From the IMG/VR virus record IMGVR_UViG_3300035698_005189, positions 34,095 to 98,094 of that record: a stretch of DNA of 64,000 nucleotides; one strand, written 5' to 3'. A model generated the notes under the pieces. The model did not search any database. It saw nothing but the letters and a program-made list of their open reading frames with translations, and had not been told where the DNA came from. Positions 1 through 37,272 of the stretch are shown here, piece after piece. Positions within the stretch are counted from its first letter, which is position 1. The number at the start of each line of letters is the position of its first letter. The DNA comes from a virus. The translations under genes were made by a program, and so were the position numbers.

Positions 1-268
1 GTAGGGTGTATCGTCCTCCGGAGCCTTCGACGACCAGCCGGTCACCCTTGCGGGACAGGGTGGGCTCGTTCAGGGCCTTTACCATCTTGGCCAGGGTCGC
101 ACAGTCCACGGCGGCGCTGACGGTTGCTGCCTCGCACGGGATGCGGACGCCTGACTCCACGTTCTGGGCGACGATGTGACCGTCTCCCAATACCGCGCAG
201 TTCAGGCCGTTGTCGGGTCGGCTGGCGGCGTACTTGCCGGCCACACCGAGAGCAGAGTTGAGGTCCAT
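1..268 (-). CDS. dnaN: DNA polymerase III beta clamp-like protein, N-terminal part (runs off window start)
   Basis: Not in ORF track (no stop in window). Manual translation: MDLNSALGVAGKYAASRPDNGLNCAVLGDGHIVAQNVESGVRIPCEAATVSAAVDCATLAKMVKALNEPTLSRKGDRLVVEGSGGRYTL, matching the pattern of the DnaN first domain; GGAG 6 nt upstream of the ATG. Confidence 0.65.
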   Translation of the reverse strand, partial: MDLNSALGVAGKYAASRPDNGLNCAVLGDGHIVAQNVESGVRIPCEAATVSAAVDCATLAKMVKALNEPTLSRKGDRLVVEGSGGRYTL

Positions 269-13956: not shown

Positions 13957-14697
13957 CTACAGTGCGTTGGCTCGCGCCTCGAGACGTTCCCTCGTGATGG
14001 GCCCGACGATACCGTCTACCTGCAGTCCCTCGTGTCTCTGGAAGGCTTGGACGTTCGCATAGCCGAGGGCGGTGAGGGCAGCCGTCACCTGGGCCTGGGT
14101 GACCAGGGCGACGCCGATCTCACGGTGAGAGTCGGCTGCCTCGACCATGGCGCGGAGGGTGTCGCCTGGGCAGGCGGGCTTGCCGAGGGCGTAGTGGCCG
14201 GTGTACTCGAACTCCGGGCCCCACAGCTCTCGCACAGCCAGGAACACAGAGGCGACGGCGCGCATCTGGGCTGCGGTGGGCTCCGAGGCGGGGTGGTTGT
14301 CGCTCGTGAAGTCACCGACGACGAGCACAGCCAGGAAGTCTGCGTTCTCATCCCCGGCCCGGGTGCGAGTGCCCTGGCTCCAGGTGGCTACGTCCAGGTC
14401 GTGGCAGAGGACGACCTGACCTTCGTCGGTGACAGCCAGGGTGTAGAGGATGCCGGGGGCTCCACCCCCGCTCGTGGGGACGTGGCACTCGTCGCTGACG
14501 TGGTAGTCAGCGATGGCCTGGACCCGACTGACTCCGCCGGACCGCCCTGCGCTGTGGTGCAGGCACAGGCCTGCGATGGCGTCGGGGGCGCGCTCTGCGA
14601 AGCGCCTGGTGGGATGAGTCGGGAAGCTGCCCCGACGATCGAGGACAGCGAGACCCTGACGGACCAGAGCCTCAGCGAGCTGGATGGTGGTGGGCAT
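13957..14697 (-). CDS. Endolysin: N-acetylmuramoyl-L-alanine amidase (Amidase_2) + PG-binding domain
   Basis: LHHSAG, GHY...ACPG Zn ligands; C-terminal FQRHEGLQVDGIVGPITRERL; AGGAGG RBS before ATG 14697. Confidence 0.88.
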   Translation of the reverse strand: MPTTIQLAEALVRQGLAVLDRRGSFPTHPTRRFAERAPDAIAGLCLHHSAGRSGGVSRVQAIADYHVSDECHVPTSGGGAPGILYTLAVTDEGQVVLCHDLDVATWSQGTRTRAGDENADFLAVLVVGDFTSDNHPASEPTAAQMRAVASVFLAVRELWGPEFEYTGHYALGKPACPGDTLRAMVEAADSHREIGVALVTQAQVTAALTALGYANVQAFQRHEGLQVDGIVGPITRERLEARANAL

Positions 14698-21941: not shown

Positions 21942-22351
21942 GGGTGCCTCCAGTCGACTGTCGGGTTGCAGTACTTCGGCCAGTCGTCGTACATCGACTC
22001 GGTGCCGGGGCCGATCGTGGGTAGGTCCAGTCCAAACTTAGGCAGGGGACGTCGCAGGTTCCCGTCGAGCAGCGACAGGATGGTTGAGGCGACGACGTTG
22101 GTGGCGGCCAGCCTGCGCTCTTCCTCGGTGTCCCCGGGTGGCGGTTCGTCTACTGCGTAATGATGGGCGATCATGGCCACGAGACGAAGGAAGTCCTCCC
22201 GAGGCGTGACGACCTCCGGGAGGACTGGTAGGGTAGGCTTGGCGACCGGTAGGGGCGGCGGGCTTGGTGGGGCGGGCGCTGCCCATACCGGAGGCGGAGG
22301 ACCTACGCTGGGTCGGGATCGGGAAGGTGGGGGCGGAGGTGCGCTACGCAT
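21926..22351 (-). CDS. Hypothetical protein with Pro-rich N-terminus
   Basis: MRSAPPPPPSR...; AGGAG RBS. Confidence 0.65.
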   Translation of the reverse strand: MRSAPPPPPSRSRPSVGPPPPVWAAPAPPSPPPLPVAKPTLPVLPEVVTPREDFLRLVAMIAHHYAVDEPPPGDTEEERRLAATNVVASTILSLLDGNLRRPLPKFGLDLPTIGPGTESMYDDWPKYCNPTVDWRHPWRKP

Positions 22352-23145
22352 GGGGGCTCCTGGGGCTCACCCTCTTCGTCGCCGCCGGGGGCTGGGGGCG
22401 TGTCGCCCCATCCCGTCTTCAGGGGCTGGTGATGGAAGCACATCGGCGGCGGCGGGTCGTCGGATGCGTGGGCCGCCACGACGAGGCCCGTACCCTTGGC
22501 GTCCAATTCGACCGTTGACCACGAATACTGCGGCAGACGGAACCGCGTCTCGAGGAAGGCGATCACGGCCTTCTCTTCGGCCTCCAGCATGGTGGTCGCG
22601 GTGTCACCCACGAGGGCATCCATCGCTCCCGGCGTCAGGAGGGATGGGTCCACGGCCAGGCCGATCTGCCGGTAGGCAGCTCTCGCGTACGACTCCACCA
22701 GGCGATGGCCAGTGAGCGGGTCCCGGTAGGGGTCATCCCACTCGGCCAGGTGCAGGACGGGGACGCCGACGCTCGTGGCGTAGGCTACCTCGTGCTGCAG
22801 GCCTTCGCTCGAGTGTAGAGGCGCTCCCTGCCAGAACTGATCGGCCAGGCCGATGAGGACTTCGTCATCCTTGAGCCAGTCGATGGCGGGGCGATCTGGG
22901 ATGAGTCCACCTTCGACCACGAGGTCGGTGTGAATCCACGACAAGACGACGTAGCCGGCGTTGATGGCCAGGCCGACGAGGCTCAGGTAGCGACCGACGT
23001 TCCGGTCATGATCCCCCCACTCCGGGATGCCGTCGCCGCGCAGGGGGTGGCCGATGTACACGGTCGGCTTGCGGAGCCGCTTGCGTAGGGTCTTGGGCTC
23101 TTCGTCTTCGGCGGTGGTCGGGTCGGGGATGACTTCGGTCTGCAT
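22303..23145 (-). CDS. DUF4406/DUF1937-like (NDT-fold) protein
   Basis: VYIGHPLRG...SSEGLQHEVAYATSVGVPV. Confidence 0.7.
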   Translation of the reverse strand: MQTEVIPDPTTAEDEEPKTLRKRLRKPTVYIGHPLRGDGIPEWGDHDRNVGRYLSLVGLAINAGYVVLSWIHTDLVVEGGLIPDRPAIDWLKDDEVLIGLADQFWQGAPLHSSEGLQHEVAYATSVGVPVLHLAEWDDPYRDPLTGHRLVESYARAAYRQIGLAVDPSLLTPGAMDALVGDTATTMLEAEEKAVIAFLETRFRLPQYSWSTVELDAKGTGLVVAAHASDDPPPPMCFHHQPLKTGWGDTPPAPGGDEEGEPQEPPCVAHLRPHLPDPDPA

Positions 23146-23150
23146 GGGGG

Positions 23151-24014
23151 CTACCTCGGGGGTGGTCCGGATCTGGTGGGGGTCACTGACTCTGTCGCTT
23201 CGAACCACGTTGGTCTCATCGATGGGCGGTTCGTGGTGAGCCATTCGGTCTGCTGCTTCGAGAAAGTTCGCTTTTGTCCACGTCGCTCACTGTCGAGGTT
23301 GGTCTCGTACCAGCCCGGACCCATGAGGGAGGCCAGGGGTCGCGCTTCCGATATCAGCACGACAGCCCCGCGTGAGGACCACACCAGGAGGCACTCCCGG
23401 AGGTCCTCGGCGTAGATGTTATTCGCGTAGCCGGTCGTGTCCCGGTAGCTGGGGTCGGCGAATACCACGAAGCCACTGCAGTCGGCTGGGATCGGGACGT
23501 CAATACCCGATGTATGGAAGGCGCGCACAGGCACCGACCACTTACGAAGCCGAGTGACCAGCTTCCGTGCTGTCGGGCCGTGGGCGTTGAACCCGCTCTC
23601 GGGCTGCCCGGCCCTGAACGACCTGGAGGCGCACAGGAGCCACCGGGCGGCTGCCTCCGTACGCAGGTCGAGGTCGGGCGAGGTCAGGTCGTCGTATCCG
23701 ATGGTGTTGAGGCGCAGCCAGAGGGGCTTTGGTTCCTCATCGCCCCAGGAGCGGATCAGGGTAGCGACCGCGTCGACTCCGCCGGCTGTGCCGAGGATGT
23801 CGTGGACTGCGCCCCAAGGGCCGGGGTCGCTCAGCCAGATCTCGTCGGCCCCGAGGCCGGACCGTAGGCCTGCGACGGCGAAGATGGGGTCGGCGTAGCT
23901 GCGCTTCCCGCCCATATACGAGATGGGCGGGTTGGCTTTGCCTCCGCCGTCGAGTCGCTCAGCCAGGGCGGCACTGCCGGCGCACATCTCAAACCATACG
24001 AGAGGGCGCTTCAT
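23151..24014 (-). CDS. Dam-like DNA adenine methyltransferase, rearranged motif order
   Basis: FEMCAGSAA precedes PPISYMGGK; catalytic FADPSY; C-terminal EWLTTN. Confidence 0.75.
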   Translation of the reverse strand: MKRPLVWFEMCAGSAALAERLDGGGKANPPISYMGGKRSYADPIFAVAGLRSGLGADEIWLSDPGPWGAVHDILGTAGGVDAVATLIRSWGDEEPKPLWLRLNTIGYDDLTSPDLDLRTEAAARWLLCASRSFRAGQPESGFNAHGPTARKLVTRLRKWSVPVRAFHTSGIDVPIPADCSGFVVFADPSYRDTTGYANNIYAEDLRECLLVWSSRGAVVLISEARPLASLMGPGWYETNLDSERRGQKRTFSKQQTEWLTTNRPSMRPTWFEATESVTPTRSGPPPR

Positions 24015-24883
24015 CGCTTCTTCCTGTGGGTCATGTCTACGACCGTGGGACGGGGCGGGGGACCGACGGGAGCCCCAGCACCAGGCTCAGCGAAGCGAGC
24101 CACGATGGACGAGTCGGCTACGGCAGATACGCGGGCGTTGGCACGATCGGCCCACCACGGGCGGATCTCGGAGCCCAGCACCGACATACCACAGCGACTG
24201 GCTCCCGCGAGTAGGGCACCCGTCCCGCTATGCGGGTCGATGCAGAGGGCCCCAGGCGTCCCGTACCGGGTCGCAACCCACTCCGCGAGCCAGACCGGCT
24301 TCTCCCCTGAGAGGCGGTCCTCACCGTCTGGGGCACCCGGGCAGCGCAGTCTGGCTGAGGGTGGCGCGGTGGGTCCCTCGAGGAAGTTGTGGCCCTCACG
24401 ATGCATCCCCATCCAGTTGAACTTGGACTTCGCCCCGTCACGCCTGACCACGATGGCGATCTGCACACCTGACAGGGGGCGGGCCCGGCGGAGGGTTGGG
24501 GCTGGGTTGGTGACGTGCCACGCCAGGAAGTAGGCGTCGGTCGTACGGGGGTCGGCCTTGGCTACGGCGATAATCTGGGAGAACTGGACGTCGGAGCACC
24601 AGATCACGGCATGGCCTCCCGGCGTCAGGACGCGCAGCCACTCGTTGAGGTGAGGCCGGAAGTCGTACGGGGCTACGTCGTAGCACCCTCCGCCCATTAC
24701 GGCCTTCCCGCCGTGAGTCGACTTCGCCTTCGCTGAGGCTGTGTTGGAGCCGAAGGCATCGATGACCAAGGCGGACGTGTCGAGGTTGTAGGGGACGTCC
24801 ACGCTCACGAGATGGACCGAGCCATCGTCGAGGGTCGGGTACAGCACCTCGAGTGCATCACCAGCCAGGATTCGACGACTCAT
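24011..24883 (-). CDS. N4/N6 DNA methyltransferase (beta class)
   Basis: GDALEVL, DVPYN, EKPVWL, IDPHSGTG, GSEI. Confidence 0.85.
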   Translation of the reverse strand: MSRRILAGDALEVLYPTLDDGSVHLVSVDVPYNLDTSALVIDAFGSNTASAKAKSTHGGKAVMGGGCYDVAPYDFRPHLNEWLRVLTPGGHAVIWCSDVQFSQIIAVAKADPRTTDAYFLAWHVTNPAPTLRRARPLSGVQIAIVVRRDGAKSKFNWMGMHREGHNFLEGPTAPPSARLRCPGAPDGEDRLSGEKPVWLAEWVATRYGTPGALCIDPHSGTGALLAGASRCGMSVLGSEIRPWWADRANARVSAVADSSIVARFAEPGAGAPVGPPPRPTVVDMTHRKKR

Positions 24884-25110
24884 GCTGGACTCCCGAAGCG
24901 GGCGGCGGTGCAGGCCTTGGCCGCCAGCTCGACGGTGACGACGTCGGCAGGAGACCCTTCGCGCTTGGCGACACGGGCCTGGGCGGCCAAGACTCTACGG
25001 ACTCGCCAGGGCAGTGAGGCGGCTGCCTCACCGACAAGGTCGTCGGCGTGGGACTCTGACGGTAGGGCCCTCAACGCGACACAGACAGGGCAGGTACACT
25101 GGGGGCTCAT
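24880..25110 (-). CDS. Small hypothetical protein
   Basis: 76 aa, CxCxxC, coupled both ends. Confidence 0.55.
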   Translation of the reverse strand: MSPQCTCPVCVALRALPSESHADDLVGEAAASLPWRVRRVLAAQARVAKREGSPADVVTVELAAKACTAARFGSPA

Positions 25111-25802
25111 TTTTCCTCCACGGCGACAGCGGTCGCCACGGTAACGGGGGCTGCGACGGCTCGCTTGGCGGCAATCTGGCGGGCGAGGGCTGTGTACTCG
25201 GCCTCCTCGAGAAGGTCGGGGACGGCGGGGCCCAGGGACCCTGTACCTGTCGCGGTTGCCGCCGCAGGTGCTGCCGCCTGCGCGGCGGTAGCGGCGGCTG
25301 CGGTGGCATCCGAGATCCGCTGTCGCTTGTCCGACCGATGCTTGTCCAGCCGGATCATAGCCGAAGCCATGCCCTCGAAGGTATTCGCCCCGACGGCGTC
25401 TTCGCCGGTCATCCTCTTCAGGCCCTCAGCCCAAATCGTATTCAGCTTGTCCAGCTCATCCAGCTCACGACCGACCGCGTCGCTGGCGGCGTAGGCGAGG
25501 ACGCGCCCCTGGATGTGCCTCCAGTGCGCTGCCCGGCGGTCAGGCCATCCGTCCCGGGTCGCCCTCTCAGCCGTACGGGGCAGGCTGATGACGTCCTTAG
25601 CTAATGCCGACTCGGGCCCGTCGATGCGGGTGGACTCCCACGCCTGCCGGATCGTTATGTCCGGGTCCTGCATGTAGGCCAAGAAGACAGCCATCACGGC
25701 TCGCTGTCCTGGCTTGCCTCCCCGCATGTCGATGACCGCGACCCCGCGCTCGAGTACTGTACGCGGGGGTGGGGGCGGGGGCGGGGTATGTCGCCGCCCC
25801 AC
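25107..25802 (-). CDS. Helical hypothetical protein (possible HTH) with Pro7 tag
   Basis: GTG 25802 after GGAGG; MGRRHTPPPPPPPR; RDGWPDRR motif. Confidence 0.6.
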   Translation of the reverse strand: MGRRHTPPPPPPPRTVLERGVAVIDMRGGKPGQRAVMAVFLAYMQDPDITIRQAWESTRIDGPESALAKDVISLPRTAERATRDGWPDRRAAHWRHIQGRVLAYAASDAVGRELDELDKLNTIWAEGLKRMTGEDAVGANTFEGMASAMIRLDKHRSDKRQRISDATAAAATAAQAAAPAAATATGTGSLGPAVPDLLEEAEYTALARQIAAKRAVAAPVTVATAVAVEEK

Positions 25803-25803
25803 G

Positions 25804-26493
25804 CTACCTCCGGACCGGGGGCGGGGGTGCGCGGTGTCGCTTGGGTCCGGTGAGCCACTCACGACCGAGGACGTTGATGGGGTTGCCCTTGGTGACTCGG
25901 TTGAACACCTGGCGCTGCTTCTCGCGGAGGTCGGTGAGGCGGAGGGTCCCGGCCCTGAGCTTGGCTTCGTCTATGACGACGGCCGCCACAGCCACGGCAT
26001 CGCAGAGGTCCTCTGCGACCGAGGGGTGGAGGTCAGCCAGGAGTGTCCGATCTGGGAAGTAGCGCACGGTCGCCTCCCGCATGTCGGGCTTGTCCGCGTT
26101 GGCGTTGTCGGCGACGTACATCTTGACTGATGAGGGGTCGATCGTCCTGAAGGGCCTGGAGGCCTTGTGGAGTGCCAGGCGACCGGCTCCGCCAATCTCA
26201 CCAGACTCGTGACCACGACCCGAGCCGAAGGAGTAGCCCTCCAGCCCGTAGAAGTCGGCCTCGGCGGCGGGGACCGCCACAGCCAGCCACGTCTCCACAC
26301 CCAGCAGTCGGTCCACGCCCCACTGCTCCTTGTCCTTTGTCGTACGCAGGAGGCGAGTTACCCTCCCGCCTCCCTTCTTCACAGCCGCCTGCGTCAGCGA
26401 GTAGGCCCACCAGTCAACCAGTAGGCCTGTGTGATAGTCCACGACAGCGATGGCTCCGTGGTTGGGGGATACGTCGAGTCCAGCTACCCTCAT
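25804..26493 (-). CDS. ruvC: RuvC-like Holliday junction resolvase
   Basis: GLDVS, LEGYSFG, PSSVK...ADK, DLCDAVAVA. Confidence 0.85.
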   Translation of the reverse strand: MRVAGLDVSPNHGAIAVVDYHTGLLVDWWAYSLTQAAVKKGGGRVTRLLRTTKDKEQWGVDRLLGVETWLAVAVPAAEADFYGLEGYSFGSGRGHESGEIGGAGRLALHKASRPFRTIDPSSVKMYVADNANADKPDMREATVRYFPDRTLLADLHPSVAEDLCDAVAVAAVVIDEAKLRAGTLRLTDLREKQRQVFNRVTKGNPINVLGREWLTGPKRHRAPPPPVRR

Positions 26494-28355
26494 GAGACAG
26501 TCTCCTCGACGACGGTAGAGTCGTCTTCTCCACGGGTCACTCTCACCGACCTGGGCATGGAGGCCGACAGTCGGGGGTCATGGTCTACGACAACGACGTC
26601 GGCCACACCGACCGCTGCGATAGCAGCGGCTACGGAGGACTTACCGGCCTCATCGAGCCCGGAGAATACTTCCTCGTCAAGGACAAGAAGCGAAAGGGGC
26701 GACGCCCCGAGGGCTGAGAAGGCCCCGGCCACGGCCAGGTCGGCAGCCAGGTTGACCCGCCGCCGCTCGCCGCCGGACAGCGCCATGAGGGCGCACTCTT
26801 CCGGCTTCCCGCTCCTGAGATCAGTGACCACAGTCCGGATCTCGTCTTTCTGGGCTCCGCGTGCGGTCTTGCGGGTGGCGGGGAATGCGATCTCGAAGGC
26901 CCCATCGGACAGGGCGACGAGCCATCGGTTGGCGTCCGTAGCGATGGCCGACAAGGCGGCCTCGGACAGGTGAGCCCTGACGCCCTTAGGGCCCAAGGCA
27001 GCTTCCCATCCGGCGGCAGTGTCGCGTGCGCGTCTGGCCTGGCTGGCGGCGTAGGCGACCTGAACCAGGAGGCGCTCATCTCCGCGCAGCTTGGCCTCGG
27101 CGTCGCTAACCAGGCCGGTGTACGGGTTCTCGGCTACCTCGGCGTCAGCCAGGGTCCTGCGGGCTGTCGTCAGGGCGGCGTCGGCCAGGGCGACGGTGGA
27201 GGCTTCCGGGCGGGAGAGGGCCCGCAGCTGGGTGCTGTGGGCGACTGTCTCAACGCGCAGCCACTCGAGCGCGGAGTCCCGGGTGGCGACTGCGTCGGTG
27301 TGATAGGCCTTCAGGGCAAGGCACGCTTCGGCCTGGGTCGCCTGGGCGGTGCGCTCGGTGGCGAGTTCGGTAGCCAGGTGGCCATCGGCCCGGACCGACT
27401 CACCGCAGGTCGGGCACGGGTCCCCGACCTTGACGGCAGCCAGCTTCGCCACGGCAGCGACGTGGGCCCGGGAGGTGGCGGCTGCGATCCCGTGAGCCCG
27501 GGAGGCTTCGTTAACTGCGTCGTCGTAGGGTTGCCGGTTCAGTGACGGGGCCTCGGCCTCCTTGGCGAGAATCGCCGCAGCCAGGGTCTTGCCGGCTGCG
27601 TCGGTCGCGTGGGCAGCTGCCAGGACAGCCTCGCAGGCAAGGACAGCAGAGAGGGCTTCGGCTACCCTGGTGTCCCGTCCCTCGGCCCACGAATCGGCTC
27701 TGGCACGGATGGCGTTGACATCGGACGCCTCCACGCGGGCCCGTACGCCTCTCTCGCGCTCACCCAGGATGGCTGCCTGGCCTTCGTGCGACTTGCGGGC
27801 CTTGGAAGCTGCAGCCCGGTAGGGCTCCAGGCGCTCGGCCCCGCTGACGGCATCCACGATCTCGCGCTTCTTGGCGTCGGTCGCCTCAGCAAACGACCAC
27901 GGATCTCCCTGACCACGGAGGACGGTCCTGCAGAAGACTTCGTGTGTCCCGATCATGGCGATAAGCCCAGCCTCACCACCAGGCATCGGCTCCCATGTCT
28001 TGCCGTCCTGAGAGGCCTCGTAGATCGCTTCCTCGGCCTTCCGACCACGGCCCCGGGTCCTGGTCACCTGCAGCAACCAGTCGCCGTCGCGCATGATGAC
28101 TGCGACACAGCAAGACTTGGACCCACGACGAATCACGGAGGCACCCGACGCGCAGGACGTACCAGACCCCATCCGCTCAGGCGCTGCCTTGCCGTAAAGG
28201 CACCAGGCGAGGGCCTTGCTCGCCATCGTTGACTTGCCGGCCCCGTTCGGGCCTGTGACGGCCACCGGACCACGACCCCCGAGGGTCAGGGTCTGCGTAC
28301 CGGCTACAGGTCCGAAGTCGGTAACCTCTACGCTTTCCAGGGTCAGTCGCTTCAT
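26490..28355 (-). CDS. sbcC: SbcC/Rad50-like SMC ATPase
   Basis: GPNGAGKST, coiled coils, CPTC hook, LSGGE, VLDEE, VDH. Confidence 0.92.
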   Translation of the reverse strand: MKRLTLESVEVTDFGPVAGTQTLTLGGRGPVAVTGPNGAGKSTMASKALAWCLYGKAAPERMGSGTSCASGASVIRRGSKSCCVAVIMRDGDWLLQVTRTRGRGRKAEEAIYEASQDGKTWEPMPGGEAGLIAMIGTHEVFCRTVLRGQGDPWSFAEATDAKKREIVDAVSGAERLEPYRAAASKARKSHEGQAAILGERERGVRARVEASDVNAIRARADSWAEGRDTRVAEALSAVLACEAVLAAAHATDAAGKTLAAAILAKEAEAPSLNRQPYDDAVNEASRAHGIAAATSRAHVAAVAKLAAVKVGDPCPTCGESVRADGHLATELATERTAQATQAEACLALKAYHTDAVATRDSALEWLRVETVAHSTQLRALSRPEASTVALADAALTTARRTLADAEVAENPYTGLVSDAEAKLRGDERLLVQVAYAASQARRARDTAAGWEAALGPKGVRAHLSEAALSAIATDANRWLVALSDGAFEIAFPATRKTARGAQKDEIRTVVTDLRSGKPEECALMALSGGERRRVNLAADLAVAGAFSALGASPLSLLVLDEEVFSGLDEAGKSSVAAAIAAVGVADVVVVDHDPRLSASMPRSVRVTRGEDDSTVVEETVS

Positions 28356-29350
28356 GGTCCGGCCTCCGTCATCCCGAGTTCGTCTGCGGCGTAGGCGAGC
28401 ATGTCTGCCGGGTCGACCTGCAGCGGGTCGGGGCCGTGGGTCCTGAGCACCCATCGGATGGCAGCCTCTTCGGGGGTGTCGCCGCGCTCGACGACGCCCC
28501 GGCTGGAGCCGGTGGCGGCTGCGGTGAGGATTGGGACCCCAGCCAGGCCGGCATCGGCTATGGTCTTCGCGTGGACGTCGGCCTCCTTCCGGGTGGCCGT
28601 GGTCACTACCCTGACCTTGTCGCCCTCGCGCACCCAGTCTGGTCGCACGGGGGCTCCGTCATCCGGGTTCCATCGGATCGTGCAGTGCCTTGGGGCTCCG
28701 ATATCACCGAAGGCGACACGGCTGGGGGCGGACCCGAGGGCGGTGTCCGGCGTCACGACCAGGAACCCCTTGGTGTGGCCCTCTTCGGCAAAGGTCCGCT
28801 CGTAGGGTGAGCCGCAGTAGACGACGCGACCGACATTCTGGGGGGCGTGGTAGTGGCCAGCGATAACAACGCCCTTGGGGACGACGTCGCCCGTAGTGTC
28901 CCGCCGAGCCGAGTTCTGGTAGGCACCCCTGAAGGCTGCGTGGGTCCAGGTCAGCGGGTGAGGTGAGAGGGGTAGGGAGTCGCGGGCGGCAGCGAAGCCG
29001 CCAGCACCGGGCCACGGAACCATCGCCCCGACCTCCGTCTCTACGGGCGCGGTTACGACCGTGACTCTGGGACCGGAGAGCAAGGTCAGCGGGGTACCCC
29101 CGCAGGGAGCGATGTCGTGGTTCCCGGTCACGAGCCAGACGTGCCCAGGCCAGTCCCGCAGGCACTCGACAAGGGCGAAGACCGTGGGAACGTGCAGGGT
29201 GTCGGCCTGGTCGAAGATGTCGCCGCAGACCACGAGGTCGGCCCCGTCGAATGTCTGGGCGTGGGCCCGCATGACGCGGAAGGCCTCGACGACCCAGCCG
29301 ATAGTCATCGGGGTGACGTGAAGGTCGGCTGTGCCGAATACGTGGCGCAT
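28352..29350 (-). CDS. sbcD: SbcD/Mre11-like metallophosphoesterase nuclease
   Basis: ADLH, GDIFD, GNHD, GHYH, YCGSP. Confidence 0.92.
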   Translation of the reverse strand: MRHVFGTADLHVTPMTIGWVVEAFRVMRAHAQTFDGADLVVCGDIFDQADTLHVPTVFALVECLRDWPGHVWLVTGNHDIAPCGGTPLTLLSGPRVTVVTAPVETEVGAMVPWPGAGGFAAARDSLPLSPHPLTWTHAAFRGAYQNSARRDTTGDVVPKGVVIAGHYHAPQNVGRVVYCGSPYERTFAEEGHTKGFLVVTPDTALGSAPSRVAFGDIGAPRHCTIRWNPDDGAPVRPDWVREGDKVRVVTTATRKEADVHAKTIADAGLAGVPILTAAATGSSRGVVERGDTPEEAAIRWVLRTHGPDPLQVDPADMLAYAADELGMTEAGP

Positions 29351-29352
29351 AG

Positions 29353-30798
29353 TCACCTCGCCTCGAGGTAGAGGCCCCGGAGGGTCAGCCACAGCCGGGG
29401 GTCCTCAGACATGAGATTCGAGAGGGCGGTCCAGCCTCGGAATGACCGATTCGCTGCGCCCAGGATGGAGGGGTCTGTGAAGCTCGACCAGCCACCGCCG
29501 ACCCGGATGATTCCGCGCATCTTGAGGTCTTCGTATACAGCCCAGGCGTTGTCGGCACCACGACCGAAGATCAGGCCATACTTTTCGGTATGGAATGGCG
29601 ACTCGACCTTGTTCTTGGGAATCCTGATACGGACGATCTGCCCCATAGGTACGGGGTGGCTATCCTTGGCCGAGCCGGGAGGCAGGACTTCGCCGATCTT
29701 GTCAACCTCGATCCGGACGGTCGAGTGATACTTGATGCCGCCTCCGCCGTAGGTCTCGGACGAAGGCCCGTAGGTGTTGCGGCCCATCTTGATCGTCTCA
29801 TAGCGCTGGTTGACGAGCACAAAGGCGATAGCCTCATCATCGATCAGCTGGATGAGGCGTCGCAGGTTGGATCGGATGACCTTGGCAGCGGCTGCCGGGT
29901 GGACGTCGCGCGCCGAGCCCTCCAGCTCCTTCTCCGTGGGGGTGCCAGCGACAGAGTCCCAGGTGATGACCACCGGACGGTCGGCGGCTACAGCGAGTTC
30001 ATTCTCCCGCCCAGAGTTCCAATCCGACAGCGCGTCGGCCTTGTCTGCGGCGGTGTCGCCATACAGGATGACGGGGCGCAGCATCTCCCGGGTCAGGTTG
30101 TCCCTGATCCCGGATACCTGCATCCCTTCGTTTCGCTGAAACTGGACAAGGGCGGCAGACTGCTCACGACTCCACTTGGCGAAGGTGAACGAGGCGACCG
30201 TCTTGGGCTTGCCCTTGGGGTCGGCCGGGGGCTCGATGATCTTGTGTATGTAGGTCTGGGGCTTGCCTGGCTTGAGGCCTGCCCTCGCCATGGCAGCGAT
30301 CCAGGCGCGACAGTTGAGGTCGGCCAGCTGACGGGCCAGGACCTCGACCTCGTCAAACATCGACTCGACGGTGCGACCACCGACCCAGATCATCGAGTGA
30401 TCGAGGATGCCAAGGGTCCTCATGTAGGGGCGGGAGCGACCACGCTCACAGTCGGCCAGGACCGCCAGACCGCCGTCGGCCTGACACTGAGCCATAATCT
30501 GGTCGGCCATCGTGGACTTGCCTGCCCCGAACCAGCCAGAGATCTCGGTCACACGACCGAGGGGGATACCGGGGACCCCGAGAGCCCGGTCCAGTGCGAT
30601 GTTCCGGGTACCGACGAACCCACGCGGAGAGCCCAGGGTCTCGGACATATCCAGAGTTGTCGCCTGGTCCTCACCAAAGGCCTCCCGGAGGCTGGCAGCG
30701 ATGGACCTTGCCAGGGGGTCTACCCGCCGCTTGGGGGCAGCTGGTCGTGCTGCCTTAGATGGGCGCGGCGGGGCTGGCGGGGGTGGCGGTCGGGTCAA
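29353..30798 (-). CDS. recA: RecA/UvsX-like recombinase with ~115-aa insertion
   Basis: GRVTEISGWFGAGKST, WDSVA, VNQ, TYGGGGIKYHSTVRI, KNKVESPF. Confidence 0.92.
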   Translation of the reverse strand: MTRPPPPPAPPRPSKAARPAAPKRRVDPLARSIAASLREAFGEDQATTLDMSETLGSPRGFVGTRNIALDRALGVPGIPLGRVTEISGWFGAGKSTMADQIMAQCQADGGLAVLADCERGRSRPYMRTLGILDHSMIWVGGRTVESMFDEVEVLARQLADLNCRAWIAAMARAGLKPGKPQTYIHKIIEPPADPKGKPKTVASFTFAKWSREQSAALVQFQRNEGMQVSGIRDNLTREMLRPVILYGDTAADKADALSDWNSGRENELAVAADRPVVITWDSVAGTPTEKELEGSARDVHPAAAAKVIRSNLRRLIQLIDDEAIAFVLVNQRYETIKMGRNTYGPSSETYGGGGIKYHSTVRIEVDKIGEVLPPGSAKDSHPVPMGQIVRIRIPKNKVESPFHTEKYGLIFGRGADNAWAVYEDLKMRGIIRVGGGWSSFTDPSILGAANRSFRGWTALSNLMSEDPRLWLTLRGLYLEAR

Positions 30799-30953
30799 GC
30801 ATCACCTCTGATCTCTGCGATAAGGACCTCACGCTCGGCTTCCGTGAGGGCTGGAGGTCCTGGCCTCTCTGGCGACACGGCCTGGCAGGCGGTGGCCTCC
30901 GGACAGGGCCCGCAGGCTCTGTCGTCGGGCCACCACCTACCGAAGCACCTCAG
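30795..30953 (-). CDS. 52-aa Cys4 (putative Zn-binding) protein, CTG start
   Basis: xRCFGRWWPDDRACGPCPEATACQ...; CTGA overlap with ssb stop and TTGA overlap with recA start. Confidence 0.55.
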   Translation of the reverse strand: MRCFGRWWPDDRACGPCPEATACQAVSPERPGPPALTEAEREVLIAEIRGDA

Positions 30954-32494
30954 AAGGGCATGTCGCCGCCCGGAGGGACCGGGGGGCCGCTCGCACCTCC
31001 CGCAGCCGGCGGGGCGGGCGGACCGGGTCGCGCTGGGGCGGCGGGTGGACCCGACGACGGAGCGGCTGGCGGTCCTGGGGGAGCCGCCCGGGCGGGCGGG
31101 GCGGGAGGCCCGGCGGGAGCCACGGGCGGCGTGGGGGGACCGGCTGCCACGGGAGGCGGGGTCGGGGGCGGGGCTGGCTTGCTCCGGGCCACGAGCGCGT
31201 CGATGGCGGCCTTGACGTTCGGCACGCTGGCGGCGGGAGCCCAGTCGGCCATCCCATCGGCCCAGACGAGGTTGGGGGCGTCGGGGGCGTCGAGCACCTG
31301 GGCTGCGATAGCGCCGGCCGACTGGTCGGTCTGCGCGTCACCCAGCCCAGCGAAGTGGTAGAGCTGCTCGGTCTCGGCGGGGGCAGGGGGACCCTCTGGT
31401 GCGTAGCCACCGCCTGGCGCGTAGCCCGGGGGACCGTTGGCGAGGGGAGCCGTGGGCGCGGGTCGCTGAGCATTGACAGCGGCAGCGATCTCGGGCACGG
31501 TACCGGCGTCGACCCAGCCAGCCATCCCATCCGTCCAGACGGTGTGGGTCGCTCCCTCGGCCGAGCCCAGGACGATGCGCGCCACACCGACGGGGTCGAG
31601 GCCGTCGAACTTGCCTCCGGTGCCGTTGTAGTGGTAGGTCACGACCGATGCCGGGGGCGCGGCTGCGGGCGGTGGGCCTGCGGCGGGACGATGGGGCGTG
31701 GCGGGCGGGGGTGCCCCGGCGTCACCCATGCTGGGGCCGGTGCCTCTGGGGTCGAGCTTCCGGGCGGCGGTGGTCAGCGCGGTTGGGTCGGCCGCCTTGA
31801 CCAGCGACGACAGCTCGAGGGCTGCCTGCAGGATGGGCAGGTAGGCGTCGTCGAGGCGGCTGGAGTCGCTGCCTTCGGTGACCGCGTATTTGACGTCCAT
31901 CGCACGAGCACCGGTCTTCTCGACCTCGATCAGGATGTCGCGTCCGCTCTGGTAGTCCTCGATAGGTCCCTTGGCGACACAGATCCGGATCAGCCCGGCC
32001 TGGACGGTGGGCGAGTAGCCCATCACCTTGGGAGCCACGACCCAGCCGCCCTGCCCGTCTTCGGTCCAGTGAGACTGCGGGTTGTCGAGGTCGATGACGT
32101 TGCAGTACAGGCGACCGCGTGCTCCGATCTCCTTGGCGACGGCTTCGTAGTCGGTCCGCTTGGCCGCGAAAAGCTCACGGCGGAGGGCGCAGATAGGGCA
32201 GACCTTGGGGGCGGCGCGGTTGTCGTGGTCATCGGGGCAGGGCAGGTTCTGGAGGGCCCCGTCGATCTTGACCTTGTGGACGTAGGTACTCACCCAGAAC
32301 TTCGCCTCCGGGTTCGCTGTGTCGGGTGCTCCGTCGGACCCCTGCGGGAGGCGGGGGATGACGCGGACGCGGTTCGTGGTTCGCTGTCCCTTGCTGGCGG
32401 GGCGCTTGAACTCGAACCACGAGAAGTCGCCTCCGCCGCCTCCGCCGCCTCGCTGGGCAAGGCGCTCTTGTTCCTGTTCGTAGACACTGGACAT
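30950..32494 (-). CDS. ssb: gp32-like ssDNA-binding protein with two GYF_2-like domains
   Basis: NRVRVIP, H..CP..CPIC Zn site, RLYCNVID, GRDILI; two VWxDGMxxWxxAxxVP repeats; Pro-rich linkers; C-terminal DMPF. Confidence 0.85.
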   Translation of the reverse strand: MSSVYEQEQERLAQRGGGGGGGDFSWFEFKRPASKGQRTTNRVRVIPRLPQGSDGAPDTANPEAKFWVSTYVHKVKIDGALQNLPCPDDHDNRAAPKVCPICALRRELFAAKRTDYEAVAKEIGARGRLYCNVIDLDNPQSHWTEDGQGGWVVAPKVMGYSPTVQAGLIRICVAKGPIEDYQSGRDILIEVEKTGARAMDVKYAVTEGSDSSRLDDAYLPILQAALELSSLVKAADPTALTTAARKLDPRGTGPSMGDAGAPPPATPHRPAAGPPPAAAPPASVVTYHYNGTGGKFDGLDPVGVARIVLGSAEGATHTVWTDGMAGWVDAGTVPEIAAAVNAQRPAPTAPLANGPPGYAPGGGYAPEGPPAPAETEQLYHFAGLGDAQTDQSAGAIAAQVLDAPDAPNLVWADGMADWAPAASVPNVKAAIDALVARSKPAPPPTPPPVAAGPPTPPVAPAGPPAPPARAAPPGPPAAPSSGPPAAPARPGPPAPPAAGGASGPPVPPGGDMPF

Positions 32495-32496
32495 CG

Positions 32497-33171
32497 TTAG
32501 CTCCTGGGCTTCGGGGTTGGGGGTGGCGGCGGGCCGCCGGAAGTGCGGGCGGGGATGGGGGACCGGGGCTTCGCAGCCACCTCGTCCTCGAGGTCCGGCA
32601 GGGTGTCTGTTGTCCCGCCGTGGTAGGTGGCATCCTCGTCGCCACCGGGGGCGGGGGTGTCATCGCGGGGGGCCGCTCCACCTGAGCCGCCGGTACCCGA
32701 CCAGGACTGGATCGCCCAGCGCCGAGCGCGGGCGGCCTCGAGGGCACCGTACACGACCTCCCAGGCCTCCGTGGTCTTCGCCTTGAGGCCATAGTGGGTG
32801 CGATACTCGGGCAGGGAGCGAACGTACTTCTCCGAGGCCGATACCGCTGGGCACTTCGCCTTCGGCCCGGTGGCGCAGTCGAAGCCAGCGTTGACCGCCA
32901 TCTCGATGTCGTTGGTCAGGTCGTGGATGAGCGAGTCGCGCCAGATCCGGTAGTCGACGTCAGCCATCTCCTTGTCGCGGGCGGCGGCAGCCACCAGCCG
33001 GGCCAGTTCGCTGACCAGTTGTGGGGTCCGGTCGCCCTCGTGGTCGTGCAGCTCCGGGCTGATAGCGACCAGGGTAGCCAGGTAGGCTCCGGTGTACTCC
33101 CGCTCGCGCACGACGACGGGGGGCATTTCGATGAGGCCTGCAACCAGCAGACGGTGTGGGACTCGGCTCAT
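32497..33171 (-). CDS. UvsY-like recombination mediator (putative)
   Basis: Long helical protein between pol and ssb; EKYVRSLPEY...GALEAARAR pattern. Confidence 0.5.
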   Translation of the reverse strand: MSRVPHRLLVAGLIEMPPVVVREREYTGAYLATLVAISPELHDHEGDRTPQLVSELARLVAAAARDKEMADVDYRIWRDSLIHDLTNDIEMAVNAGFDCATGPKAKCPAVSASEKYVRSLPEYRTHYGLKAKTTEAWEVVYGALEAARARRWAIQSWSGTGGSGGAAPRDDTPAPGGDEDATYHGGTTDTLPDLEDEVAAKPRSPIPARTSGGPPPPPTPKPRS

Positions 33172-35231
33172 AGGGCGATCTCCTTCTTGTCGGCCCACGA
33201 AGTTGTAGTGACCGACGGCTTAGCGATAATCGGGGTACGGCCAAAGCGACCCACGAAGGGCTCTTCCATATGACGCATAGTCCCGTAGGCGACTGTCTTT
33301 ACGTCCTCGAGGGCGCAGTCAACGTGAATCTCATCGTGAACGGTGCCCGTCGGCTTGCCCCGGAGGGTCCCGGCCTTGTTGGCGAGCCACATCCCGACGA
33401 TAGCATAGCGGGTCAGCTCACCGGCGGCTCCCTGGATTAGGGACGCGAAGGCCTCCCGGATGGCTGCCCCAGCGGCTCCGCGTGGGGGCCAGCCGACGTT
33501 AGCGACATGCCGCTTGCGGCCAGTCCAGTTGACGAAGAAGGGGCCCTTGCCGTCGCCACGGTCCATCCTGAGCATGGACTCCACCAGGCGCTTCTTGGTC
33601 GCGTGGACCTCGGGATTCGCCCTCTCGTACCTGTCGAGGTAGTCGCGGGCCTGGGCCTCGGTCAGCATGAGGTCGGGGTTGGCCTGCAGTCCTGGGGGAC
33701 CCATCCCGTATGGGACGCCGAAGTTGATCGGCTTGGCGCAGGGTCGCTTGGCCTTCATCACAGCCGGGTCCCGCAGGGCCTCTGGCCACATCGCCCCAGC
33801 AACGTCCCGATGGATATCGGCTTCCGTCTCACCGGCCCTCATGAGGATGTAGCCGTCGTAGTCCACACCATTCGCGCAGTAGTAGTCGTAGGCAGGCGAG
33901 GCGTAGGCCTGCTGGAGGATCTTGCCGTCGGTATGATGCCCAAGGACCCGCAGCTCCACCTGGGAGTAGTCGCACAGGACGCGAGCACGACCGGGCTCGA
34001 TGTAGAAGGCTCGCCTGACGGCAGGACCCATGACAGGATGGCGGTTCGGTAGGTTGTGGAGTGTCGGGTCGGCTTCAGCGAAGCGACCCGTACGGGTACC
34101 AGCCTGCCTGACTGTGGTATGGACACGACCGTCAGCCCCTGCGTACCAGGCCAGCCCCTTGGTGTAGGTGGTCCTGACTCGCTGTCGGATCTTCCATTCA
34201 GCCAGCTCAGCGATGCTGGGGTGTACGTCCCGCATCATGAGAAGAGCGCCCTTGTCGACCGACGGGAGCTTCGCCTTGCCCTTGGTGCGCTTCTTGACGG
34301 GGGCCTTCAGATGGTTGTAGAGCAAGTCGCGGATGGCGTTGTCGTTCGACCAGTCGAGGTTGACCCCGAATCCCTGCCGCAGGAGGGCACCCCGGCGGGC
34401 GAGGTCGTCGTCAAGTTCATTAGCGAAGCGGTGCAGGTAGTCGACGTCCAGCGCCTGGCCCTCGTATTCGAGGTCGGCCAGCGCCCGTACCAGCAGCATT
34501 TCGTTGGCGTACAGAATGAGTCGCTTACGCTCCCAGGACTCACCGAGACCCATGGCCTCCCGGCGCTGGTGTCGGTCGAGTAGCAGGGCGTGGGCGACGT
34601 CCCGGCAGGCGTACTCAGCCTCGATGCCGACTGGTACCTCGGAGTGACCGAAGGCTGACAGGTACGACTGGATGCCGCGCTCGGTGTCATCCTTGTAGAG
34701 GGTCATTCGTCTCGACTTGGCCAGGTCTCGCAGGACACCCTCGACGCCCGACTTCGACTCGTAGGGGTCCCATGGGGAGATCTGCGCCTGGGCCGCCAGC
34801 GATTCGAGGTTGATTAGGCGCTCTTCGTAGATCAGGTGCCCCTGGATCATCGAGTCGTGGATAGCGGCTTCGTCGGGCATTGGGTGGCCAGCGGCCCGGG
34901 CCATGTTGAGGTCGAACTTGATGTTCTGGCCGACCAGCTCTTCGGCTCCCTCGAGGGCGTCGTCGAATGCCTCCCAGGCGGTTGTCGGGTTGGCCTGGAC
35001 GTCGCAGGTACGGTGCCCGAAGGGGACGTACCACGCCCGATGTGAGCCGTCGTCTTCAAGGAACCCGAGGGAGTAGCCGATTGGGCGGTCGCCGTTGGCG
35101 TACCGGAGGCCGGTGGTCTCGAAGTCGACTCCGCGCTTCCGGTGGCGAACGAGAGAAGCCACCATCGTAGCCAGTTGGGCTCCGGTGGTGGCGAGTTGAT
35201 GCCTCTGGTCGAGGTGGGCAGGGATGATCAC
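33168..35231 (-). CDS. polA: DNA polymerase family A with 3'-5' exonuclease
   Basis: DFETTG, NIKFD, YACRD; DYSQVELR (A), KPINFGVPYG (B), VHDEI (C); GTGA-coupled start. Confidence 0.95.
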   Translation of the reverse strand: MIIPAHLDQRHQLATTGAQLATMVASLVRHRKRGVDFETTGLRYANGDRPIGYSLGFLEDDGSHRAWYVPFGHRTCDVQANPTTAWEAFDDALEGAEELVGQNIKFDLNMARAAGHPMPDEAAIHDSMIQGHLIYEERLINLESLAAQAQISPWDPYESKSGVEGVLRDLAKSRRMTLYKDDTERGIQSYLSAFGHSEVPVGIEAEYACRDVAHALLLDRHQRREAMGLGESWERKRLILYANEMLLVRALADLEYEGQALDVDYLHRFANELDDDLARRGALLRQGFGVNLDWSNDNAIRDLLYNHLKAPVKKRTKGKAKLPSVDKGALLMMRDVHPSIAELAEWKIRQRVRTTYTKGLAWYAGADGRVHTTVRQAGTRTGRFAEADPTLHNLPNRHPVMGPAVRRAFYIEPGRARVLCDYSQVELRVLGHHTDGKILQQAYASPAYDYYCANGVDYDGYILMRAGETEADIHRDVAGAMWPEALRDPAVMKAKRPCAKPINFGVPYGMGPPGLQANPDLMLTEAQARDYLDRYERANPEVHATKKRLVESMLRMDRGDGKGPFFVNWTGRKRHVANVGWPPRGAAGAAIREAFASLIQGAAGELTRYAIVGMWLANKAGTLRGKPTGTVHDEIHVDCALEDVKTVAYGTMRHMEEPFVGRFGRTPIIAKPSVTTTSWADKKEIAL

Positions 35232-35593
35232 GCTGCGCCAGAAGCAGCGACACCCGCCCACGCGGCGAGCTGCCGACCGTAGGCGGGATCTGTCAGGGCT
35301 GAGGCGAGGTGGTCTGGCGTGACCTCCACGATACCAGCCCTCCCAGTGAGCGCTCCGACAAGGTGGACTGTCACTCCGTTGGCCACGAGCAAGACCTCTG
35401 CGACCGGCTCCCATCCGTCGCCGACGTCACCGAAGACGGAGAGGCTGAAGCCGTGGGGGGCCGGCAGGACTCGCGTCGTGTCGGGGGTCCGGGGGTCGCC
35501 CGTCTCCCGTCGCAGGTCAACCACAGTCACAGGTCGCGCCCTGACGTCAACACGATCAGGGGGGACTTCTCCGTAGCGGGTTTCACCGAACAC
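35228..35593 (-). CDS. Hypothetical protein
   Basis: GTG after GGAGG. Confidence 0.55.
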   Translation of the reverse strand: MFGETRYGEVPPDRVDVRARPVTVVDLRRETGDPRTPDTTRVLPAPHGFSLSVFGDVGDGWEPVAEVLLVANGVTVHLVGALTGRAGIVEVTPDHLASALTDPAYGRQLAAWAGVAASGAA

Positions 35594-36186: not shown

Positions 36187-36617
36187 GAGCCACGCGTCGG
36201 GGGAGGCGGGGGCCTCCGGACAGGGGATGGCGGGGCCTTCCGGGCGGGCGGGGCTGGTGGTGTCCGCTCGGGGTCGCCAAGGCGGGCCTCGACGACGTGG
36301 GCGGGGACTCCGCAGGGCGGACCTGCCTTGCCACTCCGGAGCAATCCAACGTAGCGACCGTCGCCGGACCAGCACGAGGGAGAATGGACGCAGCCTCCGC
36401 AGAAGTCATCCGCCGGGTCGTAGTCCTGTCGGTAGCAGGACGGGAGCCCCTCGACCCCGGACTCGCGCCCACGGATCAGGAGGATGTTTCGCGCACCCAG
36501 CTCGGACATTCCCTCGTAGTCGGCTTCGTCGATGCCGGCTTCGTCGAGTTCGGCGCGGGTCCCGTCGGTGATGGGTACGGCGGCCAGAGATGACAGATCA
36601 GCCTTCGAGTTCTTCAC
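36183..36617 (-). CDS. Hypothetical Cys4 protein with Pro5 C-terminal tag
   Basis: SCYRQDYDPADDFCGGCVHSPSC; GGAGG RBS. Confidence 0.7.
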   Translation of the reverse strand: MKNSKADLSSLAAVPITDGTRAELDEAGIDEADYEGMSELGARNILLIRGRESGVEGLPSCYRQDYDPADDFCGGCVHSPSCWSGDGRYVGLLRSGKAGPPCGVPAHVVEARLGDPERTPPAPPARKAPPSPVRRPPPPPTRGS

Positions 36618-37272
36618 GGTCGTAATCCTCCACGCCTACTTCGGCGGCCTGGGTGATGGAAGCGATCCCGAGGGACCGCAGATGGGAGACGGCGGCTTCC
36701 TTGGCGTGGGTGAGCCGCGCCGAGACCCGCCGGTAAGCGGGGGAGCTGGGCCGGTCGTGTATGCCGACCATCCGAGCGATGGCGGTGGCAGGCACTTCTT
36801 CAACGTAGCGCAGGTGGAGCAAGGCGAAGGCAGCGGGCGGGAGGTTGCGGCGGAGGGCGTAGACGAGACCCTCGCAGGCGGCCTCAAACTCAGACTCTTC
36901 AGCCGTCTCGTCGCCACGGGCAGGGGTCGGGTCCACAACGTCGACCGGAGTCTCGGTCCCGTCGGGGGCTTTCTGCGTGGTCCCACGGTCGGACTCGGGT
37001 CGGCCTGCGGCCTGAGTCGCCCGGACGATGGTCAAGAAGCGCCGTTTGGCCACGGTCGCCAAGAGGGCGTCGGTGGGGAGCCTGCCGACGGCGGCGTACT
37101 CACGCCGGGACGCCACCAGGATCGCTTCCATGATCTCGGCCTCGACGTCTGTCGCGTCCATCCCGACGCGATGGGGGTGCCACACGCGCCGGGAGAGGAT
37201 GCGGGCCGACGACTGCCACGCCACCAGGACCTCTGTCTCGCCTGGGGCGGGGTTCCTGTCTTCTGGCCTCAT
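36598..37272 (-). CDS. Phage sigma-70/ECF-like sigma factor
   Basis: Region-2-like DATDVEAEIMEAIL...VAKRRFLTIVR; region-4-like LPPAAFALLHLRYVEEVPATAIARMVG...RLTHAK. Confidence 0.75.
   Translation of the reverse strand: MRPEDRNPAPGETEVLVAWQSSARILSRRVWHPHRVGMDATDVEAEIMEAILVASRREYAAVGRLPTDALLATVAKRRFLTIVRATQAAGRPESDRGTTQKAPDGTETPVDVVDPTPARGDETAEESEFEAACEGLVYALRRNLPPAAFALLHLRYVEEVPATAIARMVGIHDRPSSPAYRRVSARLTHAKEAAVSHLRSLGIASITQAAEVGVEDYDREELEG

Follow-up and report, generated by a model that had tools for sequence, protein, structure and literature searches.

The window examined here, a stretch of 64,000 nucleotides to which all coordinates below refer, is the last 64 kb of a 98,094-bp virus record (G000; IMG/VR IMGVR_UViG_3300035698_005189), a complete genome with direct terminal repeats and a GC content of 66%. 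It contains a compact replication/recombination module (22300..35414) in which every gene lies on the minus strand, in the order: DNA polymerase, a 233-residue protein, a single-stranded-DNA-binding protein (SSB), a mini open reading frame (mini-ORF), RecA, an SbcD-like protein, an SbcC-like protein, a RuvC-like resolvase and a DNA methyltransferase. The subject of this work is the gene of the RecA-type recombinase (29353..30798, minus strand; 481 residues, TTG start), and in particular a large structured module inserted into the ATPase core of this protein, whose scaffold resembles a peptidoglycan-binding domain (PGBD).

The assignment of the gene was based on PF00154, on PHROG families, on an AlphaFold2 (AF2) model and on structural alignment by VIA-align. 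The PF00154 (RecA) profile scores 108.7 bits against a cut-off of 27, with two matching stretches which flank the insert, and it is matched by all of the aligned family members (39/39). The best PHROG family is phrog_97, the UvsX-like recombinases (E 1.9e-46). The full-length AF2 model (predicted local distance difference test, pLDDT, 87.6) shows a Pro-rich N-terminal tail, an N-terminal helix, the ATPase core and a C-terminal domain. VIA-align superposes it on the E. coli RecA filament structures 3cmw, 3cmt and 3cmx with Z 33.1 and 306-327 residues aligned, and the alignment spans the N-terminal helix, the core and the C-terminal domain (about residues 1-328 of E. coli RecA), that is, the whole three-domain fold. 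The Walker A motif (P-loop) GWFGAGKST (residues 88-96; 30511..30537, minus strand) aligns to GPESSGKTT of E. coli RecA, and the Walker B strand VVITWDS (residues 276-282; 29953..29973, minus strand) to VIVVDS. Walker A, Walker B and the catalytic Glu are all present, and G93, K94, T96, E118 (the catalytic Glu), W280 and D281 are invariant across the 39 family members. In the same alignment no member deviates at N330 and Q331 (the N-Q of loop L2) or at K395 and N396, and conservation of K397 reaches at least 90%; the N-Q and K-N-K segments have their counterparts in FINQ and VVKNK of the E. coli protein, with K-N-K equivalent to E. coli K248/K250.

The phage protein therefore shares with bacterial RecA (E. 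coli and M. tuberculosis; 3CMW, 2REB, 1MO5) the three domains, Walker A and B, the catalytic Glu, the N-Q of L2 and the trans-acting lysines of K-N-K, at 24-26% identity and with VIA-align Z of 31-33 over about 300-327 residues. It differs from bacterial RecA in being phage-encoded, within an SSB / RecA / SbcDC / RuvC-like module, and in bearing a module of about 118 residues at the S135-D139 turn as well as a Pro-rich N-terminal tail of about 26 residues. On one hand, like the recombinases of the T4 UvsX type (phrog_97; 9gbg), it is a phage-encoded member of the RecA family whose gene stands beside that of a gp32-like SSB. On the other hand, its match to solved UvsX (E 1.6e-6) is far weaker than that to bacterial RecA (E 1e-26 to 1e-30). 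The gene encodes a complete bacterial-type RecA, with an N-terminal oligomerization helix and all catalytic motifs present; ATP-dependent filament formation and strand exchange are its putative activities. The Pro-rich N-terminal tail is conserved in the family; in the window it contains PPPPPAPP and comprises residues 1-26 (30721..30798, minus strand).

In the alignment to E. coli RecA chains R156 corresponds to R134 and V277 to V140, and 120 residues (157-276) stand in place of the five residues S135-D139 of the E. coli protein. The net gain is thus 115 residues, placed directly before the Walker B strand, just as the initial annotation of this stretch, made from the letters of the sequence, had proposed. 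Its limits for the insert, 29980..30324, point to the right place, and only the exact ends had to be shifted, as we delimit the inserted module at residues 157-274 (118 residues; 29977..30330, minus strand). The module combines a three-helix bundle that resembles a PGBD with a β-hairpin, and it leads back to the core through a strand, a helix and a second strand. According to DSSP of the full-length and insert-only models, bundle helix 1 occupies residues 157-172 (30283..30330, minus strand) and is a straight four-turn extension of the core helix αE (helix 144-172 in the model). It is followed by a basic β-hairpin (residues 181-208; 30175..30258, minus strand; strands 181-189 and 199-208 in the model), by helices 2 and 3 of the bundle and the loop between them (residues 211-240; 30079..30168, minus strand), which include a 21-residue segment singled out in the initial annotation, and by the return segment (residues 243-274; 29977..30072, minus strand), which DSSP resolves into a short strand, an acidic helix 250-262 and another short strand. 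The invariant A272-D273 close the return segment, and then the Walker B strand begins. Two segments upstream of the 21-mer, RAWIAAMARAG and the surroundings of WSREQSAALVQ, had also been named as helices of such a domain, and they indeed coincide with helices 1 and 2 of the predicted bundle.

The insert-only AF2 model was built from 22 sequences and reached pLDDT 96. In its own numbering it consists of a helix 2-16, a β-hairpin 25-33/43-52, helices 55-67 and 78-84, a strand 87-89, a helix 94-106 and a strand 113-115. Invariant residues of the insert are W166, K176, W209, Q221, R232, D233, P242, A272 and D273, while N162, A165 and R172 of helix 1 are near-invariant. The loop-plus-hairpin region has a mean net charge of +3.8 (range 0 to +8 among 22 members), with K176 invariant and K199 found in 21/22, and the mean net charge of the return segment is -3.5.

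When the insert model was compared exhaustively by VIA-align with 48,161 chains, ranks 1-18 were all taken by PGBD-type domains (Z 5.8-9.1; root-mean-square deviation, rmsd, 1.5-1.8 Å over 57-59 residues), and the next match had Z 4.0. The top match was the endolysin of Burkholderia phage AP3 (5nm7; Z 9.1, rmsd 1.5 Å over 57 residues); phiKZ gp144 (3bkh) gave Z 8.6, and the remaining matches included SltB3, CtpB, SleB, L,D-transpeptidases, a Zn DD-peptidase and proMMP-2/-9. The 57-59 aligned residues span positions 3..85 of the insert model, with the hairpin skipped. ESM Atlas's own, independent model of residues 157-274 led to the same family: in 10/10 nearest clusters every member carries PF01471. 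Beyond the RecA family itself, a profile made of nine insert sequences matched, among 1.84 billion proteins, only tandem-PGBD proteins, with 3-12 tandem matches per protein, located at profile positions of about 52-86. All of the sampled matches (10/10) were wall enzymes with multiple PG_binding_1 domains (PF01471 E 1e-50 to 1e-195), and the per-repeat alignments between the insert and canonical PGBD repeats share A-V/L, Q, G-L, T-G, D and T-R. In a six-frame PF01471 search of the whole 98-kb genome there were two matches only, the endolysin of the phage (30.1 bits) and the insert (18.8 bits, E 1.9e-4), and 9/39 family members give sub-threshold PF01471 matches (E ≤1), the best with E 2.4e-4. 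These results support the view that the scaffold of the insert is a divergent PG_binding_1-type three-helix bundle. The fold proposed in the initial annotation, with structure prediction and PF01471 comparison as the way to verify it, is thereby supported by the 18/18 VIA-align matches, the 10/10 Atlas clusters and the profile matches of the insert.

Similarity to PF01471 domains (5NM7, phiKZ gp144 3BKH, SleB 6TCI, L,D-transpeptidases) lies in the superposable bundle and in the common α2-loop-α3 pattern; differences are seen in the loops. The published peptidoglycan-binding motif is D-G-(Pho)2-G-K/N-G/N-T (PMC3352856), and the consensus of canonical repeats reads D-G-x-F-G-x-x-T in the first loop and T-G-x-A-D-x-x-T in the second. 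In the insert the α1-α2 loop is a 28-residue β-hairpin in 22/22 aligned members, and D-G-Pho-Pho-G is absent from it. The second loop reads (S/T)(G/S)(I/V)-R-D-x-x-(S/T), with R232 and D233 invariant, and it resembles the T-G-x-A-D variant that is common in the second loop of tandem PGBDs. The second-half signature of PGBDs, A-V-x-x-F-Q-x-x-x-G-L-x-x-T/D-G-x-x-D/G-x-x-T-x-x-x-L, is found in the insert, with the invariant R232 at a hydrophobic position. A change of DGxxG to SGIRD had been noticed from the sequence of the window; the second loop is altered indeed, though the departure is larger than that, as the first loop has been replaced as a whole. Moreover, known PF01471 domains are located at the end of secreted wall enzymes, whereas the insert lies inside a cytoplasmic ATPase and its PF01471 scores stay sub-threshold. 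As the protein is cytoplasmic and one of the two peptidoglycan-binding loops is gone, the fold seems no longer to serve cell-wall binding, and the module has almost certainly taken on a new task within the cell. The gene context, a domain within a cytoplasmic recombinase that is itself encoded in a replication/recombination module, likewise argues against peptidoglycan binding.

The insert is not peculiar to this phage. A homolog search covering 5.8 billion proteins found at least 77 metagenomic homologs (44-65% identity, about 470-490 residues), all with the insert, which answers in the affirmative the question, raised in the initial annotation, of whether related phage RecAs carry it. The next relative, P0078 (35% identity, 387 residues), is without it. 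Scans of IMG/VR and metagenomes gave insert-bearing loci (L001-L013 and L081-L103) and two loci without the insert (L014 and L106; 40-41% identity). On average, pairs of members are 43% identical in the insert, as against 62% in the core and 54% in the C-terminal domain, and the lower value for the insert than for the core means that the insert is constrained, yet evolves faster than the core. By these alignments, the module is both old and constrained, and it characterizes a single clade of RecAs from metagenomic phages. No cultured phage with the insert emerged from a tblastn search of 50,697 phage records, in which the best matches among RecA/UvsX of cultured phages are at most 30% identical and fall into two pieces that skip the insert; a scan of 185,579 species genomes, with the patterns used, gave no insert-bearing RecA, no prophage copy and no clue to the host.

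The site of insertion may be informative about the role of the module. In E. coli RecA, D139 forms a salt bridge with K6 of the N-terminal helix of the neighboring subunit, both in free and in DNA-bound filaments; the N-terminal domain is located on the outside of the filament, and a part in DNA binding and in the capture of duplex DNA has been ascribed to its Lys8/19/23 (PMC2672939). The turn replaced by the insert is the one that contains E. coli D139. By homology, the module should therefore project from the filament exterior at every subunit junction, and it should adjoin the N-terminal helix of the neighbor together with its Pro-rich, basic N-terminal tail. Each subunit of the presynaptic filament would then display, at the subunit junction, a rigid bundle with a basic hairpin on the outside. 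We propose that the module may act as an extra contact arm, which touches DNA with its basic hairpin, the N-terminal region of the neighbor with its bundle, or both. In the former case it could provide a secondary DNA-binding surface for duplex capture or filament stabilization, and in the latter the bundle could brace the N-terminal region of the adjacent subunit. As to function, we infer, and favor, such a DNA- or neighbor-contact arm, with docking of a partner protein as its main rival. The initial annotation, too, had suggested protein or DNA contact, which is thus a putative role. The joint explanation, namely an insert-bearing RecA with a PGBD-derived bundle and an exterior contact-arm role, seems to us a probable one.

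Several observations weigh against this explanation. With regard to the fold, the three-helix arrangement of PG_binding_1 is present in the models, and the Pfam threshold is not reached: PF01471 scores 15.9 bits with the whole protein and 18.6 bits (E 0.002) with the insert alone, below the curated 23 bits, and the match is confined to profile positions 32-57 (the region of residues 211-240). Foldseek searches of the insert against PDB and BFVD gave nothing significant, which is probably due to the hairpin insertion defeating this method, and the nine-insert profile found no PGBD and nothing relevant at E ≤10 among PDB sequences. Because of these two null results and the sub-threshold Pfam scores, the PGBD assignment rests on VIA-align, the Atlas model and the repeat-summed hidden Markov model matches. 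An hhalign comparison with 129 canonical PGBD repeats gave a probability of 97.6% over 34 columns (helix 2-loop-helix 3), a supportive rather than independent result, as the templates came from the insert's own matches and the test is circular. With regard to the role, the exterior placement was deduced from the literature and from homology to the D139 turn of E. coli RecA, not from coordinates; the net charge of the whole insert is just about +2.5, and the hairpin region is neutral or negative in two members. Finally, relatives without the insert keep the SSB / mini-ORF / RecA gene trio, and therefore the insert is not required for the basic pathway.

A different possibility is that the module serves as a docking platform, i.e., a protein-protein adaptor recruiting a replication or recombination protein to the filament. 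We regard this as rather unlikely, although it deserves more attention than the other alternatives. Candidate partners would be the gp32-like SSB, the 4-Cys mini-protein or SSB extension encoded upstream, and SbcCD, and such docking might, for example, load RecA onto SSB-coated ssDNA without a mediator of the UvsY/RecO type; no such mediator was recognized among the genes neighboring recA. The SSB gene (30950..32494, minus strand; 514 residues; phrog_1192 SSB, E 6.5e-8) is the upstream neighbor. Its product has two GYF_2 stretches (PF14237, 32.9 bits against a cut-off of 25.8), a PF08804 gp32 match of 17.3 bits and a long Pro-rich tail which ends in GGDMPF; the SSBs of the relatives all have Pro-rich tails and a C-terminal aromatic residue (...GGxAF). 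GYF domains are binders of proline-rich peptides, and a contact between SSB and RecA through these domains and the poly-Pro tail of RecA is conceivable. Between the two genes lies the conserved mini-ORF (30795..30950, minus strand) of about 51 codons, with a C-terminal helix and the 4-Cys motif C(F/Y)GxWWxDDRxCxxC...C. Tight translational coupling links the three genes, and in the window the TGA stop of the mini-ORF overlaps the TTG start of RecA (TTGA/ATGA across loci).

This coupling, as well as the conserved aromatic end of the SSB tails, would suit a docking platform, and so would the invariant surface-type residues W166, W209, R232 and D233, which have no obvious role in a PGBD. There is also a precedent for such re-use of the fold: the pro-domains of proMMP-2 (1CK7/1EAK) and proMMP-9 (8K5V), which are among the structural matches of the insert, have a PGBD-type bundle (Z 5.9-6.3) that makes protein-protein contact instead of binding peptidoglycan. 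Unlike the insert, however, they are eukaryotic, extracellular, N-terminal auto-inhibitory pro-peptides, unrelated to nucleotide-binding proteins. The main argument against docking is that the mini-ORF and the aromatic SSB tails also stand beside RecAs which lack the insert (L014, L106, L015, L019, L030), and neither of them co-varies with it. For the same reason we rejected co-occurrence as an argument for a specificity of the SSB tail or the mini-ORF for the insert.

A related idea, which we find doubtful, is that the module keeps the PGBD grip on a short peptide with a free carboxylate and now binds a cytoplasmic ligand of such a kind. The peptidoglycan stem peptide, the ancestral ligand of the PGBD fold, ends in a free carboxylate, and candidates for a new ligand may be the A/S/P-F-COOH end conserved in the gp32-like SSB of the phage, or muropeptide precursors. 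If this were true, a wall-recognition fold would have become a built-in mediator or switch which loads the recombinase on SSB-coated DNA, or regulates it there. Retention of the original ligand binding in a stricter sense, directed at cytoplasmic UDP-MurNAc-pentapeptide, at recycled muropeptides or at the wall after holin action, would couple the activity or location of the recombinase to the status of the cell wall. It could be invoked on the grounds that the second half of the PGBD (G-L, T/S-G, D, T/S-R) is conserved throughout the family and aligns cleanly to canonical repeats. Nevertheless, we consider it very unlikely, as the hairpin replaces the first peptidoglycan-binding loop, the second-loop D and the final G of D-G-Pho-Pho-G (motif from PMC3352856) are changed in all members, there is neither a signal peptide nor a lysis context, and the domain forms a rigid part of an ATPase that assembles into filaments.

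The endolysin of the phage (13957..14838, minus strand; 293 residues; phrog_1493) consists of Amidase_2 (PF01510, 28.2 bits) and a short C-terminal PG_binding_1 (PF01471, 28.7 bits; residues 261-286, 13981..14058). The latter is truncated to PF01471 positions 32-57, and its first helix runs straight into the second one, without the first D-G loop; the bona fide wall-binding domain of this phage is, to judge by this alignment, itself a minimal version. The initial annotation had emphasized that the RecA insert resembles this very protein. The underlying count is correct, since the 21-mers encoded at 30079..30141 (RecA) and 13981..14043 (endolysin) are identical in 13/21 positions without gaps, and this pair reaches 30.8 bits (E 4e-5) when RecA is compared with the endolysin by BLASTP; together with the PF01471 matches of the insert, this puts the resemblance beyond chance. 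However, it is not a special one. The insert occurs throughout the clade, and although 13/21 is the highest value in the family, with other members matching the endolysin 21-mer at 4-10/21, the DNA of the two 21-mers agrees in 38/63 nucleotides, and third codon positions agree in 6/13 identical residues. We reject recent copying from the endolysin on these last two figures. A recent origin of the insert or its 21-mer, by copying or gene conversion from the phage's own endolysin PGBD, is thus hardly credible, the more so as homologs down to 44% identity carry the insert with the same architecture and the similarity is confined to generic consensus positions of PF01471. In terms of sequence, the similarity between RecA and the endolysin is generic PGBD homology.

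A large in-frame insertion in the RecA core brings to mind the inteins of mycobacterial RecA. Inteins, however, are excised and have Hint splicing blocks, a Cys/Ser N-terminal junction and a C-terminal junction of His-Asn plus Cys/Ser/Thr, whereas the insert is conserved as part of the mature protein. As read from the sequence, it starts with QLADL and ends with AADR, followed by PVV, i.e., the intein junction residues are absent, in agreement with the initial annotation; together with a PGBD bundle and hairpin in place of a Hint fold, this rules out an intein origin. The broader notion of an unrelated linker, a degenerate intein, a mobile-element remnant or a gene-fusion artefact with a fortuitous 21-mer match could draw on the sub-threshold Pfam scores and on the Foldseek and PDB sequence-profile searches without a significant match, but it can practically be set aside in view of a single uninterrupted reading frame conserved in at least 77 homologs, the high model confidence, fold matches that are exclusively PGBDs and clearly set off from the next one, an Atlas model that independently agrees, profile matches that are likewise exclusively PGBDs, and the missing intein junctions.

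RecA is among the most conserved and best-studied proteins, and to our knowledge large structured insertions in its ATPase core, inteins aside, are not part of the textbook picture. Our literature searches yielded no account of a recombinase with an internal PGBD-type domain; an eLife paper on conflict systems mentions other peptidoglycan-binding domains, not an insert in RecA. The insert-bearing RecA shows that a domain family normally tied to the cell envelope has been re-used in a cytoplasmic filament-forming ATPase, at a site which presumably lies at the exterior subunit junction, beside a region to which published work on E. coli RecA assigns a part in duplex capture and in contacts between subunits. 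Should the module provide a further surface for binding DNA or a partner, it would represent a natural experiment on the tuning of presynaptic filaments, and it may explain how the recombinase is loaded in a phage lineage without a recognizable UvsY/RecO mediator. For annotation practice, the case indicates that sub-threshold PG_binding_1 matches in cytoplasmic proteins can be real homology without wall binding.

The mini-ORF itself shows some unusual features. It was present in all insert-bearing loci examined (including L011, L012 and L081-L101) and in the insert-less L014 and L106; it had no Pfam match, and no longer proteins containing its domain, such as natural in-frame fusions with SSB, were found, which is weak evidence. 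It is always in the -1 frame relative to SSB and starts at the SSB stop. In 7/16 loci, the window included, there is no ATG, GTG or TTG before the Cys motif, and all of these start-less loci (7/7) have an in-frame X_XXY_YYZ heptamer within the last 5-18 SSB codons, that of the window being C_CCC_CCG, 11 codons before the SSB stop; in Pro/Gly-rich sequence of high GC content, chance would also be expected to yield heptamers of this type. No heptamer is seen in L084 and L014, where the mini-ORF has an ATG or GTG of its own. This pattern is compatible with the mini-ORF being a programmed -1 frameshift extension of SSB or being translated by unusual re-initiation; in the window, a CTG overlaps the stop and might allow non-canonical re-initiation.

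The remaining genes of the neighborhood, all on the minus strand, are those of a family-A DNA polymerase (33168..35414), of an SbcD/Mre11-like nuclease subunit directly downstream of RecA (28352..29392; phrog_100, E 2.2e-20), of an SbcC-like protein (26490..28454), of a RuvC-like resolvase (25804..26493) and of a DNA methyltransferase (24011..24883). A 233-residue reading frame (32497..33198) and a 382-residue one (36598..37746) have no PHROG or Pfam match, and the sole match of an 800-residue reading frame (37269..39671) is phrog_1576, of unknown function. The lineage of this phage is uncultured: in comparison with GenBank/cultured phages, identity does not exceed 26% for the DNA polymerase or 30% for RecA. 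The relatives of the phage come from TARA and other metagenome assemblies, with a GC content of 54-68%.

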